From assembly GCF_050013435.1 (NCBI RefSeq), contig NZ_JBEKFG010000005.1:12609-76608 (forward strand): a stretch of DNA of 64,000 nt. The letters run 5' to 3'. The position numbers and the translations under genes were made by a program. Source of the DNA: Candidatus Binatus sp. (GTDB lineage: Bacteria; Desulfobacterota; Binatia; Binatales; Binataceae). This document shows, piece after piece, positions 54,072-64,000 of the stretch (positions are counted from its first letter, which is position 1; each line of letters starts with the position of its first letter). The notes under the pieces are model-generated. The model searched no databases. It saw only the letters and a list, made by a program, of their open reading frames with translations, and was not told where the DNA came from.

Positions 54072-54180
54072 CCTGTCCTTACCAAAAATTCCATCTGGAC
54101 AGGAATTCGAGCGGCTGCGAGAATTGTTATCGAATTGATGCGCTTAAGTGAGACGGGATGCGATCTGAACCACAAGCGGC
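54072..54180 (+). repeat. about 110-bp inverted repeat, left copy
   Basis: Reverse complement of 59101..59211 aligns at roughly 85-90% by eye. Core: ggctgcgagaat..tatcgaattgatgcgcttaa..gagacggg.tgc.atctgaaccacaagcggc. Confidence 0.8.
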
Positions 54181-54280
54181 CGACCCCTCATCAAGATCGA
54201 AAAACACTCCGATACCGAGTCTTCAGGCGACGGCGTACCGGCCGCCGCGCAACCATTGGTGAGCAGGAATCCGGGACGAA

Positions 54281-55303
54281 TCAGGCGGCGACGCGTTCGT
54301 AGCAATGATGCAGGCCACCGACCTGCGGGATGGCGACGGCTCTTCCGATTCTGGGCGGATGGATTGGGCGGGGGTCCGGACAATCCTTGTCGAGCGAAAG
54401 ATGCGTGCGGGTGCGTTGGTAATAGTCGACGTACGAGGAGAGGACTCGACGCAGATGGCGCTCATTGAAGATCACAATGTGATCGAGACATTCGCGCCGG
54501 ATCGAACCGATCACCCGCTCGACGTACGCGTTCTGCCAGGGTGAGCGCGGCGCCGTGATGACTTCCGTGATGCCCATCGCTTCGACCCGGCCGCGGAAGT
54601 CCGAGCCATACGATGCGTCACGGTCGCGCAGCAGATACCGCGGAGCGGCATCCCATGGGAAGGCTTCGGTCACTTGGCGCGAGAGCCACGCTGCGGTCGG
54701 ATGCTTGGTGACAGCGGTGTGCACGATATTCCTGCGATCGTGGGCCAGAATGATCATCACATAAAGCAGCCGAAACGATGCGGACGCCACAACGAACATA
54801 TCGATCGCAGCGATACCTTGGGCCTGATTGCGCAGGAAAGTCCGCCAGTTCTGAGAAGGCGTTCCCCGCCTTCGCACCATGTACTTCGCGACGGTCGCTT
54901 GGCTGACCTCGACGCCGAGCTTGAGCAGCTCACCATGGATCCGAGGCGCACCCCAGAGCGGATTGGCGCTGCTCATCTGCCGAATCAGATCACGAATCTC
55001 GCACTCTACTGACGGCCGCCCGGGTCTCGAACGCCAACGCCAAAACAGGCGAAATCCCTGACGGTGCCATTGGATCACTGTTGCTGGCTTGACCAACACC
55101 ATCATTTCCAGACAGCGCGGCCACAGTCGGTAGAGCCCGACCCAGGGCAAGCGGTCGAAAGCAAATAGACGCAGCCGACCCGGCCGCTGGCAGCGAAGAA
55201 CGTGCAGTTGATGACGGAGGGCGAGGTTCTCTAGTTCCACAAACGCCCGACTGCGGCATCGGCATACACGCCGAGAAACGATCGATCGGACCAGCTTAAG
55301 CAT
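54281..55303 (-). mobile_element. DDE transposase/integrase (rve core domain), IS481/IS3-like
   Basis: Start at MLKLVRS. HTH GAPRIHGELLKLGVEVSQATVAKYM. Catalytic core ending PRSPWQNAYVERVIGSIRRECLD. The IS termini were not identified. Confidence 0.85.
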
Positions 55304-55536
55304 GCCGGCGATATTGCATCGGTGAATCCAAAAACTCCAGACTTTCCGGCGCGTTCGGAGTTTTTGGTAGCCACAGCCGGTCAAGAAGGTCGGACTTTTA
55401 GACGCTTCCCCTGTTTTCAGTTGGCAGGGATAGCCACCGGCCACGGGCATCGCGTTGCGGTGCTTCCACTCCTAGGCGGGTTGCAGCATCAATACGTCCG
55501 GCTTTAGGTTTTGACTCAAGGCGCAAGGGTTGACAG

Positions 55537-56797: not shown

Positions 56798-57775
56798 ATG
56801 AAGACGCGCATTACAGAACTCTTCGGTATCAAGCATCCGATCATCCAAGGGGGCATGCATTTTGTTGGGCTTGCAGAACTGGCGGCAGCCGTCTCGAATG
56901 CGGGCGGGCTTGGAATCATCACAGGCCTGACCCAGCGAACGCCTGCCGATTTGGCACGCGAAATTGCCCGCTGTCGCAAGATGACCGACAAGCCATTCGG
57001 CGTGAACCTGACATTCCTGCCCGTCATTAGTAACCCGGATTATCCGGGTTATGTGAAGGCCATCATCGATGGCGGCGTGAGAATCGTTGAGACCGCAGGC
57101 AATAATCCGCAGAAGTGGCTACCCGCGCTCAAGGAAGCCGGCGTCAAGGTCATCCACAAATGCACTTCTGTTCGCCACTCGCTGAAGGCGCAGGCGATTG
57201 GGTGCGATGCGGTGAGCGTCGATGGCTTTGAATGCGGCGGGCACCCCGGCGAAGACGACATCCCAAATATGATCCTGGTGCCGCGCGTCGCAGAGGAATT
57301 GAAGATCCCCTTGGTTGCTTCTGGCGGTATGGCAGATGCCCGATCCTTGGTGGCCTCTCTGGCATTGGGCGCTGATGGAATGAACATGGGCACCCGCTTC
57401 ATTGCCACCAAGGAGGCCCCGGTTCACGAAAACGTCAAAAAGGCCATCCTCGCGGCTTCGGAACTCGATACCCGCCTGATCATGCGCCCGTTGCGAAATA
57501 CGGAGCGGGTACTGGCAAATAAGGCGGTCGATCACATTCTTGAGAAAGAACGGTCGTTGGGTGCCAACCTGAAATTCGAAGATATCATCACGGAGGTTGG
57601 CGGCGTTTATCCCCGCATCATGACCGAAGGTGATATGGATGCGGGCGCCTGGTCCTGCGGCATGGTTGCCGGCCTGATTCACGACATACCGTCATGCCAA
57701 GAACTGATCGACCGCATTATGGCCGAGGCTAAGACGATCATTCGCCAGAGGCTGGAGGGATTTTTGGAGGCTTGA
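56798..57775 (+). CDS. nitronate monooxygenase (second paralog)
   Basis: Start at MKTRITELFGIKHPIIQGGM. DGFECGGHPG motif. AAGGA lies upstream of the ATG. Confidence 0.85.
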   Translation: MKTRITELFGIKHPIIQGGMHFVGLAELAAAVSNAGGLGIITGLTQRTPADLAREIARCRKMTDKPFGVNLTFLPVISNPDYPGYVKAIIDGGVRIVETAGNNPQKWLPALKEAGVKVIHKCTSVRHSLKAQAIGCDAVSVDGFECGGHPGEDDIPNMILVPRVAEELKIPLVASGGMADARSLVASLALGADGMNMGTRFIATKEAPVHENVKKAILAASELDTRLIMRPLRNTERVLANKAVDHILEKERSLGANLKFEDIITEVGGVYPRIMTEGDMDAGAWSCGMVAGLIHDIPSCQELIDRIMAEAKTIIRQRLEGFLEA

Positions 57776-58020
57776 GGCCCTGTCACACAGATCTAATTTT
57801 CGGCGTTGACAGCGGTCGGCAGATGAGCATGGCGATTTGATGGCGCAGGGCGATTGCCTCCAACAGCAGCGCAGTTCAGGTTCGGGGTTCGCTGCGCACG
57901 AGCGGCAGCGCTGCGCTTGTCGGCGTCGCCATAAAGGAGGCTGGCTATGCGTTCGAAACCACCAATGAATCCGTGCCGATTCAGTTTTGAGAAGCCACAA
58001 GTATCATCGTGTCGCGCATA

Positions 58021-58773
58021 TCAATCGATGCGCATGATACCGCGACGTAGTGTTGCTGATCCGTAGGTCTCCTGCGTCAGTGGCGCTCCCAATTCGGCGA
58101 GCACCGCTCGATGCTGCTTTAACGGTGTGCGTAACAATCGATCCTCGATTGGTTTGAGCTTCCCAAAGCTCTCGTGTCTTAGTGCGCGTTCAACAAACGC
58201 GGCCGTTAGAGGCCATCGCACAGCATCGACTCGAAATCGTGTAAATTCTGCGTTCCGAAAGAAGCACGCGATACTGATGTCCGCGATGGAAAGCTTGCCA
58301 AAAATGAAACCCTCAGTCGGAACTTGTTCCTCAAGATAATCGAGGATTTGGGGCATATCTTCGCGGAGAGTCTTTTCGACCGCTGCCTTGTCGGTCGGTT
58401 CACCCCATACGTTCGGTTTGATTGCGACCTGGTTGAATAACCGCCATATGAAGACCTCGCCCATCCGCGAGTCGGCATATTCTTCGAGCCAGCGGGCGCG
58501 AGCTCGCTCAACGATGTTAGTCGGGTATAGCTCAGGCTCCGGATAACGGTCTTCCAGGTACTGGCAGATAACAGAAGAGTCGGCAAGCGTGGTTTGGTCA
58601 TCGATGAAAACTGGAATCCGGCGCAGTGGACTTATACGGGAGAAGCTATCATTGCCGGAGAAAGGTATAATCGGGTCGATCTTATAGGAAATACCTTTCA
58701 GGTCGAGAACCACCAACACCTTGCGAACATAGGGTGACAGATAGCCGCCAATGATCTGTACTGGATGCGACAT
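58021..58773 (-). CDS. glutathione S-transferase family protein
   Basis: 250 aa. N-terminal thioredoxin-like fold (ISPLRRIPVFIDDQTTLADSSVICQYLEDRYP). Confidence 0.8.
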   Translation of the reverse strand: MSHPVQIIGGYLSPYVRKVLVVLDLKGISYKIDPIIPFSGNDSFSRISPLRRIPVFIDDQTTLADSSVICQYLEDRYPEPELYPTNIVERARARWLEEYADSRMGEVFIWRLFNQVAIKPNVWGEPTDKAAVEKTLREDMPQILDYLEEQVPTEGFIFGKLSIADISIACFFRNAEFTRFRVDAVRWPLTAAFVERALRHESFGKLKPIEDRLLRTPLKQHRAVLAELGAPLTQETYGSATLRRGIMRID

Positions 58774-59100
58774 GGTTCCTCCTTATTATTCAACTTGCTT
58801 ATTTCCGGAGGGGAGGCGAATCAGATATAGCCTCGCGCTTTAGGTGCCGCTTACTTCTTCATCATCGCAGGAAGGGTAGCCTGCTGTCTAGCGAGCATCT
58901 CACTGGTTGAAGAACGCACTTGCACGTTTGTCCATCACAGCGCTAAGTTCTGCCGGCCCTACAATTGCACCTGTTGTGGCTACCAACTGGCCTGCCCCCC
59001 GATGCCCATCAGGTGAGAAGTAGGGTCGTTTGATGTATGACCTGCCCCGCAAAAGCTAGTACGACCAGGAGTTGAGAAATCGACCCGGTGTGGTTGGTGA

Positions 59101-59211
59101 GCCGCTTGTGGTTCAGATAGCAGCCCGTCTCGTTTAAGCGCATCAATTCGATAGCGATTCTCGCAGCCGACTCAAATTCCGGTTCAGATGGGAATTTGTG
59201 GCAGGGACAGG
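59101..59211 (-). repeat. about 110-bp inverted repeat, right copy
   Basis: See 54072..54180. Confidence 0.8.
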
Positions 59212-59444
59212 CATAAACACGCCTTGGCTGAATTGAAATAAGAGCCAAGGGTCTCATGCCCAGAAAATAATGCGCAGCAAGCCCGCCCCGATTCGGCGTA
59301 TTTCCTCGTTCGGCCTGCAGCCGATCAAGGTTCCTTCACATTATGGTTTCCTGCTGATTAGCAAAGCTCTCCCCGCAAGAGCGGGGACTAAGATGAGCAA
59401 CATCATTCACGCGCGATCTCTCCCGCGCGCGAACTGTGATTCCG

Positions 59445-59753
59445 TCACGTCAGTTCAATCGATAAGAGCCGGACGTATTGCTGCCCCTGATGCATATCGC
59501 GCTCTACAACCCCGCCCTGTGGAGTTTTGCGCGGAAAGGAAATTTTCACCACGTTCAGGTTATCGACCGCGAAGTATTTTACCAGCGCCGGATCGACGCC
59601 GTATGCCTCCGCGATGCGAGGTGGCGAGATCGCTTCGCTCGCATGGTACTTCCGAAAGCTCTCGTGGTCCTTGAAAAAGAGGTCGATCGTCACCCAAAAG
59701 GGTCCGGCGTTCTTTGACCGGATATAACGGCACGCGTCGCGCAGGTTCGGCAT
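59445..59753 (-). CDS. DUF4387-like small protein (AtuA partner)
   Basis: Start at MPNLRDACRYIRSKNAGPFWVTIDLFF. Sits immediately downstream of the AtuA-family gene, the usual pairing. Confidence 0.7.
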   Translation of the reverse strand: MPNLRDACRYIRSKNAGPFWVTIDLFFKDHESFRKYHASEAISPPRIAEAYGVDPALVKYFAVDNLNVVKISFPRKTPQGGVVERDMHQGQQYVRLLSIELT

Positions 59754-59755
59754 CG

Positions 59756-61141
59756 CTAGGCCTTCGCGTCGAATCGCTTGACCCACTCAATTCGGACCAA
59801 TTCGAGTGGATCATTCACGGCGACAACGTGGTTGAGCTTGAACTCGTAGACGCGTCCGCGTTCGATTTCGGCCGGCGAAAACGGAAACCCGTAGCTCGGA
59901 AGTTCAGTTCCGGCCTCGAGCGGGAAATGAAAGAAATAAGGATTGCAGGTCTTCGCGATCCTGGTGGCCATTTCCTGGGAGGGCGCCGTCGCGACAAACA
60001 GCACACCAACTTCGCGAGGCGGGGTGGCGTCCGATGGCACCGGCAGACCCGATACCGCGTTCCATCCATAGAGCCTCAGCGAAATGTCATAATCCACGCC
60101 TTCACCGATCGAGCGCGACACGCGGCCATGAAGCGCGGCCAGCATGCGATCGTGAAACCGGTCCAGGTTGGCGAGAACGGAAGGGTCCTGGATCCCAATC
60201 AACATGATCGTCTGAAAAGGCCCGCCCGCCGCGCCTTCGAGCTTCATCGTGTACGGTCGCGTCTCCCACCGCGAACCGACGACACGGACCGAACGTTCGT
60301 CAAGCCGATGGTATCGTGCCGCAGTCACGTCCAGGATGCCTCCGGGCTCGATCAGCCGGAACGGATCGCTGTTCTCATAGAGCATGTGCGCCGACACGCT
60401 GTAGGTATCGCAGCGGATCCCCGTCGAAAGCGGTTCCACCACGAAACTGTCCTCGCCGATTCGAAGGAAAACGCCGGAGCCTCGAGCAGGGTCGGTCGTG
60501 CATAGCGCACCGCATTCCGCGATTTTTGCCGCATGCCATGCGGCGCCGGCGCCGCTACCGCGCATCAGAGGAAGCGCCGCGATCACCGCGGTGTCCGTAG
60601 TTCGTCCGCCAAGCACGATATCGGCGCCGGCGTCGAGCGCCGCCATATACGGTTCGGCTCCCATTGCACCGACGATGTGATCGCACGAATCGATCAGCGC
60701 GTCGGTCATCGGATTCGGCGGAAGTAACGCCTGAATCTTGCCCTGGGCGTTCTTTTCCTTCAGCACGCGCTTGTCCTGTTCCGAATAGAGCAGGGCGATA
60801 CGCGGGTGCAGCTTCAGCTCCTCGGCAAGTTCGACGACGATATCCCGTGTCCAGTTCACGCCCGCATCGCCGCCTGCTTGTCCGCACGATCCGATCGTCA
60901 GCGGTATTCGCGCGCGGGCCTGCGCTTCCATCAGAATTTGCAGATCGCGTTTTACTGCCGCGCAACTGTTCTTGGACATTCCCATGGCAAGATAAGCGGC
61001 GCCGCTGTCGGTCGATCCCGCGTCGACGGCGATCGCATGTGCACCCCACGCGATCCCGTTGGCCACCTCCTCGGCACGAATGCCACCCCCAAGCTGCCCA
61101 ACGGGAACAAGAACATTCACTGTCTGCTTCGTGGGGTTCAT
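59756..61141 (-). CDS. AtuA-family (DUF1446, acyclic terpene utilisation-like) protein
   Basis: 461 aa. N-terminal VLVPVGQLGGGI...AIAVDAGSTDSGAAYL. Confidence 0.75.
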   Translation of the reverse strand: MNPTKQTVNVLVPVGQLGGGIRAEEVANGIAWGAHAIAVDAGSTDSGAAYLAMGMSKNSCAAVKRDLQILMEAQARARIPLTIGSCGQAGGDAGVNWTRDIVVELAEELKLHPRIALLYSEQDKRVLKEKNAQGKIQALLPPNPMTDALIDSCDHIVGAMGAEPYMAALDAGADIVLGGRTTDTAVIAALPLMRGSGAGAAWHAAKIAECGALCTTDPARGSGVFLRIGEDSFVVEPLSTGIRCDTYSVSAHMLYENSDPFRLIEPGGILDVTAARYHRLDERSVRVVGSRWETRPYTMKLEGAAGGPFQTIMLIGIQDPSVLANLDRFHDRMLAALHGRVSRSIGEGVDYDISLRLYGWNAVSGLPVPSDATPPREVGVLFVATAPSQEMATRIAKTCNPYFFHFPLEAGTELPSYGFPFSPAEIERGRVYEFKLNHVVAVNDPLELVRIEWVKRFDAKA

Positions 61142-61568
61142 GTCATAGCTTCGCGGGGGCTATGCCGCTATGCCGACGTCGGCCAGATATCGCCGAGCTG
61201 CCGATTTCAGGGAAGGTCTCGGACTTTGGCAGATGATGCGTTCCAAGCAGGTATTGCTTGTTCCTCGTCGCCGGCGATTTGCGTCGTAAGCCGTATCGCT
61301 TCCCCAGCGCCTGCCATACGCGATCACACGACTTCCGCATCGGCACGAGCGATGGGGCCGGGAAGCTGCACGATCCCTAGACGCTCGAATTCATCCCGCT
61401 GCTCAGTGGTAAGCGTGGCGACTCCGCACGAGCGGAAATCCAGATTCTGAAACACCATAGTCAGTGAGACAAGGAGCTTGCAACCGCCAACGGCCGGTAC
61501 TGGTCCGGTCTGGCCGGTTCGACCCGATGTCAACGCCCGACCGCGACCAGATGTACCACCGTCGCGTG

Positions 61569-61624
61569 CCTGTGTGTGGCGAATTGCTGATTCTTGGGGA
61601 AATCAGCAATTCGCCACACACAGG
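61569..61624. repeat. 56-nt palindromic element (24-bp perfect stem, 8-nt loop)
   Basis: cctgtgtgtggcgaattgctgatt-cttgggga-aatcagcaattcgccacacacagg. Confidence 0.95.
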
Positions 61625-61693
61625 TCGAACTCGCGCCAATCTGATCGCGCGGCGGCATTGGCAGCGAGCAACGGCGGCGCTAGTTTGCTGACT

Positions 61694-62491
61694 ATGCCAA
61701 AGCAGTGGGTACGCGATATTGAGATCTATTATGAAGTGCACGGCAGCGGGCCGCAGACGCTGGTGATGGTCCGCGGCCTCGGCTCGAATCTGTGCGCGTG
61801 GTACGAGCAGACCCCGGTGCTCGCGCGTCATTTTCGCACCGTGGTTTTCGACAATCGCGGAGCGGGACGCACCGACAAGCCTGACGCGCCGTACTCGATG
61901 CGGCAGATGGCGGCGGACACGGTCGGGCTGATGGACGCGCTCGCGATTGATCGTGCGGCGCTGCTGGGAATCTCGATGGGCGGAATGATCACGCAGGAGT
62001 TCGCGCTGAACTATCCGGAGCGGCTGAGCGCGCTGATCCTCGGCTGTACGAATTTCGGCGGACCCACTGTGGTGCAGGCCGAGCCCGAAATTATCTCGGC
62101 GGTGATGGCCGGGGCTAACCCGACTCCCGAACAGCGGCGGCTGCAACTCCGCGCGTCGTTCTCGGACGCATCGATCGAAGGCAGACCCGAGTTCCTCGCC
62201 CGGGACGAAGAAATGCGCGCGCTCTATCCGATTCCGCCATTCGCATTCATGCGCCAAATGCAGGCGATCACCGGACACGACACCGGAGCGCGACTCGGCG
62301 CCATCAAGACTCCCACCATGGTGATGGCGGGGCGCGATGACCTGCTGGTGCCGCCGGTAAATGCGAAAATGCTGGCGGAGAAAATTCCCGGAGCAATTCT
62401 CAAGGAGCTGCCGGGCGGACATCTGTTTTTCACCGAGTTTCCGGAGCTGTTCAATCCGCTGGTGATCGAATTTGTGCGATCGCATCCCTGA
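61694..62491 (+). CDS. alpha/beta-fold hydrolase
   Basis: Start at MPKQWVRDIEIYYEVHGSG. GISMGG nucleophile elbow, C-terminal GGHLFF. Confidence 0.85.
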   Translation: MPKQWVRDIEIYYEVHGSGPQTLVMVRGLGSNLCAWYEQTPVLARHFRTVVFDNRGAGRTDKPDAPYSMRQMAADTVGLMDALAIDRAALLGISMGGMITQEFALNYPERLSALILGCTNFGGPTVVQAEPEIISAVMAGANPTPEQRRLQLRASFSDASIEGRPEFLARDEEMRALYPIPPFAFMRQMQAITGHDTGARLGAIKTPTMVMAGRDDLLVPPVNAKMLAEKIPGAILKELPGGHLFFTEFPELFNPLVIEFVRSHP

Positions 62492-62557
62492 CGCGAGGGC
62501 AGATCGTGATGACGATGCGAGAACGAATCTTAATTTATGATTGAACCGCGCCTCCAG

Positions 62558-62612
62558 CCTGTGTGTGGCGAATTACTGATTTCCCCAGAATCAACAATTC
62601 GCCACACACAGG
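62558..62612. repeat. 55-nt palindromic element, inverted copy of 61569..61624
   Basis: cctgtgtgtggcgaattactgatt-tccccag-aatcaacaattcgccacacacagg. The loop is the reverse complement of the first copy's loop minus 1 nt. Two stem mismatches. Confidence 0.95.
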
Positions 62613-62728
62613 CGATCGCGGTTGCGGTTGCGACGTCTGGAATCGACAGCGGTGCGGCGTTTGCGGCCGTGATCGGACTCCTCATCGAAGTACCTGTCAT
62701 GATCGGACTGGTCGATGTTTCGCGCTGA
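62613..62728 (+). pseudogene. acr3: C-terminal remnant of an ACR3-type arsenite efflux permease
   Basis: [36 protein letters not shown] matches the conserved last TM segment of Acr3. Homology starts exactly at the hairpin edge. Confidence 0.7.
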
Positions 62729-62820
62729 GCGCGACGCAGATATTTTCCTACATCGCAGGCCGCAATCGAGGCGGAAGGTAGTCGCAGCGTGAAGAGTGCA
62801 TAACGCCCGCCGGTAGGTTG

Positions 62821-62838
62821 GATGCTCATATGAGCATC
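62821..62838. promoter_or_regulatory. 18-bp perfect palindrome, candidate ArsR operator
   Basis: gatgctcatatgagcatc lies about 60 nt upstream of the likely arsR start. Confidence 0.5.
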
Positions 62839-62899
62839 CGTGGGATCACGGAGCAGGCGCTTGCGTCGTTTATATTTCGATGATACTAGAATTATCGTA

Positions 62900-63271
62900 G
62901 TGAAAGAATTTGTGTCACAACTGAGTGCGCTTGGACAATCCGGCCGGCTGGAGATCTTCCGCCTGCTGGTGCGCGCCGGCCCGGATGGAGCCTGCGTCGA
63001 TGAGATCAGGCGCCGGGTCAAGATGCCGGGCTCGACCCTGTCTCATCACCTCGACGCGTTGACCCGAAGTGGGCTGCTGACGGCGCGTCGCGCGGGGCGA
63101 TTCATCTACTACGCAGTCAATTGGCCGAAAGCCGCGAAGTTGATCCAGTTCATGACCGAGGACTGTTGCGCCGGCCTCCCCAAGCGGCTGGGCGCATCGC
63201 CGGATCGTACGCAATCCGCTAATCGCCCCTGCCGTAAAATAACGGGCAGGTGTGGAGGCCACGATGAGTAA
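62900..63271 (+). CDS. arsR: ArsR/SmtB-family metalloregulator
   Basis: Winged HTH (LGQSGRLEIFRLLV...VDEIRRRVKMPGSTLSHHLDALTRSGLL) and a C-terminal Cys pair (EDCCAG). Start uncertain: GTG at 62900 or 62840. Confidence 0.8.
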   Translation: MKEFVSQLSALGQSGRLEIFRLLVRAGPDGACVDEIRRRVKMPGSTLSHHLDALTRSGLLTARRAGRFIYYAVNWPKAAKLIQFMTEDCCAGLPKRLGASPDRTQSANRPCRKITGRCGGHDE

Positions 63272-64000
63272 CGAATCGATAAGGGAAAAAGTCAGGGAGG
63301 AGTACGCGGAAGTGGCGCGGCGAGCCGCTAACCAGGGCGGCTCATGCTGCGGCGCGGCGGTGCCTGCGGCGAACCCAATCGTGCCCCGGCCGTCTGATCT
63401 TTAAGGCGAGGGCGAGATTGCGTCGCTTCCCGCCGAGGCGGTTGCGGCGTGGGCGGGATGCGGAAATCCAACCGCACTCGCCGAGCTGAAGCCCGGCGAA
63501 ACCGTGCTCGACCTTGGCTCCGGCGGCGGGATCGACGTGCTCCTTTCCGCGCGAAGAGTGGGGCCAACGGGCAAGGTGTACGGGCTCGACATGACCGACG
63601 AGATGCTCGCGGTCGCGCGCGATAGCCAGCGCAAAGCGGGCGTCCAGAACGTCGAATTCCTCAAAGGCGAGATCGAGCATATCCCGCTGCCCGATAATTC
63701 GGTGGACGTGATCATCTCGAACTGTGTGATCAATCTTTCGGCCGACAAGGATCGCGCGCTGCGCGAAGCGTTCCGGGTGCTGAAACCGGGCGGCCGTTTC
63801 GCCGTTTCGGACATCGTGGTGCGCGGCGAGATGCCTGCCGAGATTCGCCGCCGCATCGAGTTGTGGGCCGGATGCATCGCGGGTGCGCTGGAGGAATCGG
63901 AATACCAAACGAAGCTCGCTCAGGCGGGATTCGAGCAGATCGAAATTGAACCGACGCGGATCTACACGGCGGCTGATGCGCCGGCATTTCTTGCGGATAA
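63264..64000 (+). pseudogene. arsM: arsenite S-adenosylmethyltransferase interrupted by an in-frame TAA; runs off the window
   Basis: N-terminal VREEYAEVA...GGSCCG. TAA at 63402..63404. The same frame continues ...[61 protein letters not shown]...[11 protein letters not shown]...[13 protein letters not shown]. Confidence 0.8.

Follow-up and report, generated by a model that had tools for sequence, protein, structure and literature searches.

Introduction

An arsenic-resistance locus of Candidatus Binatus sp. (Binataceae) raises the question of how a single intact hydrolase gene came to stand between two long hairpins of nearly the same sequence, the second of which marks the point where a truncated gene for the arsenite efflux protein ACR3 begins. 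The locus lies in a 64,000-nucleotide stretch (RefSeq assembly GCF_050013435.1, contig NZ_JBEKFG010000005.1, positions 12,609 to 76,608 of the forward strand), the whole of which is referred to here as the window. An initial annotation, drawn up from the DNA letters, had described the two hairpins, here called A and B, and had offered two origins for them: recognition hairpins of an HUH/Y1-type transposase acting in trans, or the ends of a novel non-autonomous cassette.

The analysis presented here indicates that hairpins A and B are probably copies of a minimal miniature inverted-repeat transposable element (MITE) of the Binataceae, derived from a 1.2-kb insertion sequence (IS), named IS-B, by fold-back of its left inverted repeat upon itself (IRL-IRL), and that each copy stands at a rearrangement junction. 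The window would accordingly be laid out, from left to right, as the side of AtuA, hairpin A, the last six codons of a reductase gene together with the hydrolase gene, hairpin B, and the last 38 codons of acr3 together with arsR. Three features on which a MITE is recognised were observed: the elements are short and non-coding, their terminal inverted repeats (TIRs) match those of an autonomous IS, and multiple dispersed copies share derived mutations.

Hairpins A and B and their family

Hairpin A occupies 61569-61624 (56 bp, + strand, in the IRL or 'forward' orientation) and reads CCTGTGTGTGGCGAATTGCTGATT-CTTGGGGA-AATCAGCAATTCGCCACACACAGG, with a 24-bp stem free of mismatches and the loop CTTGGGGA. 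Hairpin B lies at 62558-62612 (55 bp, - strand) in the flipped orientation, and its loop, TCCCCAG, is the reverse complement of the loop of A less one base. The hydrolase gene is the sole gene between them; this arrangement, the coordinates, the perfect stem of A and the flipped loop of B had all been reported in the initial annotation and were confirmed from the sequence. The two mismatches that it counted in the stem of B are also present, lying next to each other as A.C/C.A on the + strand and as G.T wobbles on the - strand, but only one is private to B, the other being a G.T/A.C asymmetry found in most members of an 80-sequence family alignment (A4) that includes both hairpins. Whether as DNA or RNA, and on either strand, A and B folded more stably than dinucleotide shuffles by 7.5-10 standard deviations, none of 200 shuffles equalling them. 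The 14-mer GTGTGTGGCGAATT matched four times in the window (0.53 expected), always inside the two hairpins. At 55-56 bp, the hairpins are non-coding and hold no open reading frame (ORF) of their own. In keeping with the earlier remark that they lack U-tracts and do not resemble integron attC cores, inspection of the sequence found no T-run 3' of either hairpin and no R''/R' core sites (RYYYAAC / GTTRRRY) within the hairpin sequence, the stems of which are fully paired and the orientations of which are mixed across copies; no Rfam family was matched by the hairpins.

One genome per prokaryotic species was scanned with the pattern GTGTGGCGAATT-N(10-40)-AATTCGCCACAC, yielding about 91 hairpins on 84 genome stretches from at least 37 assemblies. 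The hosts are nearly all assigned to Binataceae, to Binatus or to metagenome-assembled genomes (MAGs) labelled 'uncultured delta proteobacterium', with a few copies on short contigs binned to other phyla. Exact-arm copies range from one per genome (in a closed chromosome of 4.6 Mb) to about 12, defining a low-copy family unlike the swarms formed by repetitive extragenic palindromic (REP) sequences. The window locus itself was found in many peat-bog metagenome contigs (L001-L010), the extra flanks of which add four full hairpins and one solo arm. When oriented by the loop, the family consensus is CCTGTGTGTGGCGAATTGCTGATT-CTGGGGA-AATCAGTAATTCGCCACACACAGG, and both the loop CTGGGGA and one G.T wobble are common to most copies, across species.

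Using a codon-usage gene caller trained on the hairpin loci, which matches the database gene calls for L001, 87 of 93 hairpins were found to be intergenic. Of the flanking gene pairs, 19 are divergent, 17 convergent and 33 in tandem, and hairpin orientation is uncorrelated with the direction of the neighbouring gene (same in 13, opposite in 20). Most hairpins stand singly; the pairs found elsewhere (L011, L026, L058, L075) have no constant spacing or relative orientation. Across alignment A4, pairing in the 24-bp stem stands at 93%, with the outer two pairs open in about half of the copies, and no stem covariation was detected (score 0.059 vs 0.058 in shuffles, a value reached by 209 of 500 shuffles). 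Covariation at shuffle level implies that the arms are kept as sequence and not as structure. One hairpin was found on a 9.8-kb contig of a viral-contig collection (L209 141-185, IMGVR_UViG_3300010343_000624), a possible vehicle for spread between species.

The parent insertion sequence IS-B

A search for solo arms returned pairs of arms about 1.2 kb apart on either side of an rve_3/HTH_32 ORF, for example at L034 92-1292, L015 402-1604 and L082 1449-2647, and it is to this insertion sequence, present in Binataceae genomes, that the name IS-B is given here. It is 1200-1206 bp long, the 21 non-redundant full-length copies measuring 1200-1218 bp, and carries a single DDE (rve_3) transposase gene with an N-terminal helix-turn-helix (HTH). 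The terminal inverted repeats begin CCTGTGTGTGGCGAATT, the inverted repeat (IR) reading CCTGTGTG... with TGT near its tip. With the transposase on the + strand, the left repeat (IRL) is CCTGTGTGTGGCGAATTGCTGATT(C/T)TGGCAGAA..., and the right repeat (IRR), given as reverse complement, is CCTGT(C/G)TGTG(T/G)CGAATTCCAA.... Both hairpin arms are identical to the IRL of IS-B over 27-28 nt, whereas the IRR shares the outer 17 nt only (alignment A3); in hairpin A, it is the left arm and the start of the loop that equal the IRL over these 27-28 nt.

Clustering of the ORFs at the hairpin loci grouped one family in 29 of 86 loci, mixing rve-type and some IS110-family transposases. A scan of metagenomes with a pattern combining the IRL and the adjoining interior gave 87 stretches, several of them from related peat and bog samples, and one (L166, SPRUCE peat metagenome Ga0187859) comes from the same sample as L008, a copy of the window locus. 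Against NCBIfam, the best scores of the IS-B transposase were 99.9 bits for NF033577 (transpos_IS481; cut-off 224) and 95 for NF033516 (transpos_IS3; cut-off 160), so neither curated cut-off is reached, and its nearest annotated plasmid relatives, at about 30% identity, are named only 'integrase core domain-containing protein'. IS-B thus belongs to the IS481/IS3 superfamily of DDE elements, within which it is unclassified.

Some loci combine the hairpin with part of IS-B: an IRL, 250-350 bp of IS-B and a hairpin, with IRL at both ends, occur at L093 1-397, L125 2344-2644 and L045 3736-3897. These may be derivatives of intermediate size, or may have arisen when a deletion ran from a hairpin into an adjacent IS-B.

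Origin of the hairpin and insertion signature

Within the IRL, nt 23-33 form a small palindrome, TTCTG-G-CAGAA. Perfect fold-back hairpins, GCTGATTCTG-G-CAGAATCAGC with the loop CTGGCAG, are present in L171, L190, L188 and L062 and, flipped, in L122/L126, and they correspond to IRL nt 1-27 mirrored about this palindrome. The major subfamily differs from the fold-back form by CAG>GGA in the loop and by one C>T change in the arm, which creates the wobble. Since these derived changes are common to most copies in many species, the hairpins must have been copied from a mutated master and not formed anew each time.

The hairpin consists of the first 27-28 nt of the IRL joined directly to their own inverted copy, with the fold-back point on the IRL palindrome, and most likely originated by strand-switch (snap-back) copying of the left end of IS-B. 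One mutated master, with the loop CTGGGGA and one G.T wobble, was then copied to many sites and across species. Being non-autonomous, the hairpins cannot move unless an enzyme is provided in trans; as each arm is a putative transposase-binding end, the IS-B transposase probably fills this role.

Among the 91 hairpins, no target site duplication (TSD) of 2-6 bp was enriched at any offset, and the dinucleotides just outside TGTG...CACA are mutually independent (Fisher p = 0.83). Similarly, none of the 21 full-length IS-B copies has a TSD at any offset, and hairpins and IS-B alike have a purine-rich left flank and a pyrimidine-rich right flank. The same lack of TSD and the same flank bias suggest that the hairpins behave like their parent, yet a TSD, the classical hallmark, is missing. 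Conversion of IS-B into a hairpin in situ was checked by means of shared flanks and offered no informative case, the sole shared flank (L188/L191) being cut by a contig end.

Genes cut at the hairpins

The intact hydrolase gene (61694-62491, + strand, 265 aa) encodes a full-length alpha/beta-hydrolase (Pfam Abhydrolase_1, E 3.8e-30), the closest homologues of which (88-93% protein identity) are found in other Binataceae contigs. In the relatives L103, L105 and L106, the hydrolase gene lies immediately downstream of a gene for a 141-aa F420H2_quin_red protein (PF04075), and the relatives carry the hydrolase gene without hairpins. DNA homology between the window and these three loci is confined to a single 915-bp island (61619/23-62533/37, 88-94% identity), the sole match in 70 kb. 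In the nucleotide alignment, the reductase gene breaks at the hairpin boundary, the window remnant beginning at the last base of hairpin A: what is left of this F420H2-dependent quinone-reductase-like gene (61624-61644, + strand) is its last six codons and stop (VELAPI*), cut exactly at the right end of A. The right limit of homology falls about 20 nt before hairpin B and is uninformative, because the relatives diverge from one another at that point too.

At hairpin B, the gene cut is acr3. Of this gene, a 3' remnant with the final 38 conserved codons is left (62612-62728, + strand). ACR3 homology sets in on the terminal base of the hairpin, 62612, bearing out the earlier statement that it resumes at the second hairpin. 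When the remnant was used as a database query, all 178 matches were ACR3 C-termini. The conserved NNFEL of real ACR3 proteins, which lies just upstream of the point where the remnant starts, is substituted here by hairpin sequence. The 7-nt string AACAATT in the right arm of hairpin B was compared with the acr3 codons for NNF; it does not continue in register and was taken as coincidence. No further ACR3 piece was found in 57000-64000 by tblastn with pieces of acr3 pseudogenes, which matched only 62612-62767. The hairpins therefore mark breakpoints, as had been proposed for acr3 at B, and the upstream partner gene of the hydrolase is additionally cut at A.

Other copies stand at comparable junctions. 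Eight further hairpins adjoin internal coordinates of IS-B, of an IS110-family element or of IS-A (a relative of IS-B, described below), on one side only, and at none of the eight does the same IS resume on the other side, as it would after simple insertion. Hairpin copy 6 of L004 truncates another transposase gene, and two copies of IS-B, in L198 and L200, share the left flank and have different right flanks. Such one-sided truncation at an element end is expected of transposase-driven adjacent deletion, and recombination between copies inserted in genes gives the same pattern.

The simplest history of the window would comprise two adjacent deletions (or MITE-MITE recombinations), each setting out from a hairpin at its right end and taking away the 5' portion of the gene beside it. 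Under such a history, the bracketing of the hydrolase gene is a by-product and not the mark of a cassette.

Weighing the explanations

The hairpins could instead bound a composite transposon, the 1.04-kb unit having jumped into acr3 before a later deletion took the 5' part of acr3 on the left. This is the cassette of the initial annotation, and several features speak for it: two copies of a TIR element flank one gene, the hydrolase block has been separated from the gene that conservedly precedes it and has hairpin A as its left limit, and each palindromic copy presents an outward-facing IS end in either orientation. It nonetheless seems unlikely, given that there is no acr3 sequence in the left flank of hairpin A, that the hydrolase gene occurs without hairpins in relatives, and that hairpin pairs elsewhere have neither constant spacing nor constant orientation. 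Moreover, exact-protein look-ups disclosed one single context in all 22 hydrolase-bearing contigs read and in all 10 arsR-bearing contigs, the outer flanks of the A-hydrolase-B unit are unrelated (GCGTG / CGATC) with no flanking duplication, and the events needed are at least as many as under the deletion model. What stands of the earlier cassette proposal is that the elements are non-autonomous and depend on an enzyme in trans; movement of a cassette is unsupported, the context being single and the left flank of A not being acr3.

The other origin offered at the outset, REP/REPIN-like or IS200/IS605-type recognition hairpins served in trans by an HUH (Y1) transposase, would agree with long intergenic palindromes in both orientations that lack a TSD, since HUH elements generate none. 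It is nevertheless highly improbable and was abandoned: it is a DDE/rve IS whose terminal inverted repeat forms the arms, stem covariation is absent, copies number from 1 to about 12 per genome, and there is no GTAG-type head. No Y1 transposase figures among the recurrent neighbouring gene families, and a phmmer search with an IS200 TnpA query gave no match at E<=10 among 13,978 ORFs in 1.2 Mb of flanking DNA, although a divergent REP-associated tyrosine transposase (RAYT) might escape it. An equally slim chance attaches to functional host structures, such as terminators, mRNA stabilisers or operators. The stems are indeed very stable, nearly always intergenic and conserved in sequence across species, but they have no U-tract and no Rfam match, divergent gene pairs (19) are as frequent as convergent ones (17) with no strand bias relative to adjacent genes, compensatory change is at chance level, and the hairpins adjoin truncated genes and ISs. 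The initial annotation had reckoned that an abundant intergenic repeat unlinked to breakpoints would speak against its view; the elements proved dispersed and intergenic, as in that picture, but low-copy and breakpoint-associated.

Several observations weigh against the derivation from IS-B followed by adjacent deletion. It is unusual for DDE/rve transposases to leave no TSD, and copies could have spread by another route; among all the collected loci there was no filled/empty site pair that would document transposition of the hairpin or its insertion chemistry. Neither the 64-kb window nor its 18-kb extensions yielded IS-B, so that its presence in this very genome is conjectural, and about 30% of hairpins vary in their outer two bases (CC/GG). 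Homologous recombination between copies of the MITE, or composite transposition plus deletion, would furthermore leave the same picture as adjacent deletion. The closest ars loci (L114/L118, with ArsR 88-89% identical) are arranged acr3 <- arsC <- arsR2 / arsR -> arsM -> methyltransferase; their acr3 lies on the strand opposite to that of the window remnant and is 77-78% identical to it. A remnant that is inverted and of such low identity relative to these loci requires at least one more rearrangement. The window is colinear with L114/L118 only from 62873 on (89-91% identity over 62873-64899), and comparison of the sequences places a third breakpoint just upstream of arsR.

There is also an outside chance that IS-B and its 55-bp derivative represent an undescribed clade of rve-type transposons that integrates without TSD and has a one-sided junction, through adjacent deletion, as its usual outcome in cis. 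If so, the hairpins would not be passive repeats but would actively drive gene loss and the shuffling of loci in Binatota, and fold-back at the IRL palindrome might be something that the transposition chemistry regularly yields and not a single accident.

Comparison with known systems

MITEs derived from insertion sequences are known in bacteria, e.g. the Correia/NEMIS elements of Neisseria and RUP of Streptococcus pneumoniae. Like these, the hairpins are short and non-coding, have TIRs matching an autonomous IS of the same lineage, are dispersed in intergenic regions, are presumably mobilised in trans and are associated with rearrangements. They differ in being only 51-55 bp long with nothing between the ends, in lacking a TSD, in their low copy number and in that both ends come from one end of the IS (IRL-IRL fold-back) and not from IRL plus IRR through internal deletion. 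Overall, the family is mildly unusual in three respects: the element is extremely short and stems from a single IS end, parent and derivative alike lack a TSD, and the truncations are consistently one-sided.

The IS481 family is defined in ISfinder with direct target repeats of 4-15 bp. IS-B resembles the IS481/IS3 superfamily in its length of about 1.2 kb, its single rve DDE ORF with N-terminal HTH and its IRs with TGT near the tip, yet it scores far below the curated cut-offs and none of its 21 copies has 4-15 bp direct repeats. With REPs and REPINs, the hairpins have in common that they are intergenic palindromes in both orientations, that they lack a TSD and that they are landing sites for IS110-family elements; unlike REP/REPIN-RAYT systems, they have the arms of a DDE IS, a copy number 10-100 times lower, no preference for 3' ends and no Y1 transposase detected. 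Cargo flanked by MITEs can be mobilised, as in integron mobilisation units and MITE-bounded class 1 integrons. The A-hydrolase-B unit is similar in having a cargo gene between two MITE copies, but gives no sign of movement as a whole: there is no flanking duplication and no second location, and the outer flanks are unrelated.

These results give an initial account of a family of mobile elements in Binatota, an uncultured phylum. The family has three members: an IS481/IS3-like IS without TSD, the minimal palindrome derived from it, and an element of the IS110 family that lands on both. The 55-bp elements mark the points of breakage and rejoining in an arsenic-resistance locus and in an operon next to it. 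For the annotation of MAGs, the hairpins can serve to flag pseudogene boundaries and likely trouble spots of assembly or binning. A striking sequence feature is thereby explained in ordinary terms, as transposon-driven genome rearrangement, and no open question of the field hinges on the hairpins.

Associated elements and decay of the locus

The IS110-family element (NF033542, 348 bits), which has the subterminal repeats ATGGACCGCTCCC/GGGAGCGGTCCAT, always occupies the position CC[TG]^TGTGTGGCG, in either hairpin arm and in the IS-B IRL, with TG at both junctions. Sites include L019 ~720-2047, L035 6400-7866, L048, L063, L079 and L084, as well as the IS-B IRLs of L131, L159 and L193. The fixed position with TG at both junctions indicates that the hairpin/IRL sequence is a specific landing site. 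REPs similarly serve as landing sites for the IS110-family elements IS621 and ISPpu9 (PMC11208160, PMC12288879).

The window carries an insertion sequence of its own, IS-A (54072-55376, 1305 bp, rve_3 transposase on the - strand), which was considered as a parent of the hairpins and ruled out, since its IRs differ (CCTGTCCTTACCAAAAATTCC / CTGTGGCTACCAAAAACTCC); it is only a relative of IS-B. Five copies of IS-A (window, L094, L044, L042, L083) likewise have no TSD. A 110-bp terminal piece of it (54072-54180) recurs as a solo fragment in the window at 59101-59211 (inverted), at L001 17524-17623 and at L024 6909-7018. These three solo fragments lie in unrelated places, have the same inner end point (...AAGCGG), and one of them directly adjoins a hairpin; the fragment may be a discrete miniature derivative or reflect a preferred deletion end point.

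To the right of hairpin B, decay has continued. The acr3 remnant has a premature TGA at 62726-62728, where relatives have TGG (Trp), and similarity runs on to about 62767, implying that it decayed further after truncation. It is followed by arsR (62861-63271, + strand, Pfam HTH_20/HTH_5) and then by arsM (63264 to past the window end), which is judged to be a pseudogene from an in-frame TAA at 63402-63404, where relatives have TAC (Tyr), and from 9 nt inserted a short way upstream of it. A truncated acr3, an arsM pseudogene and the absence of arsC and arsR2 jointly show that the entire ars locus is decaying. Frameshifted acr3 pseudogenes in L095-L102 occur in several unrelated contexts, near a group II intron, a tyrosine integrase and other genes, so acr3 decay recurs among related soil and peat contigs. 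Remnants of acr3 in relatives (P0002-P0011) were also considered as a clue to the junction at hairpin B; being frameshifted, in unrelated contexts and without hairpins, they were uninformative.

To the left of hairpin A, the 427 bp between the start of atuA and the hairpin (61142-61568) hold no recognisable gene; a PhyH-like pseudogene considered at 61143-61533 (- strand) was dropped, as Pfam gave no support. Further left, the strain variant L004 is the same as the window rightward of about 58002 (L004 6308) and wholly different leftward. The junction coincides with the end of another truncated IS481-like element, the opposite end of which is cut by a hairpin (L004 5815-5870), and the variant DNA, 6 kb in extent, holds three hairpins.

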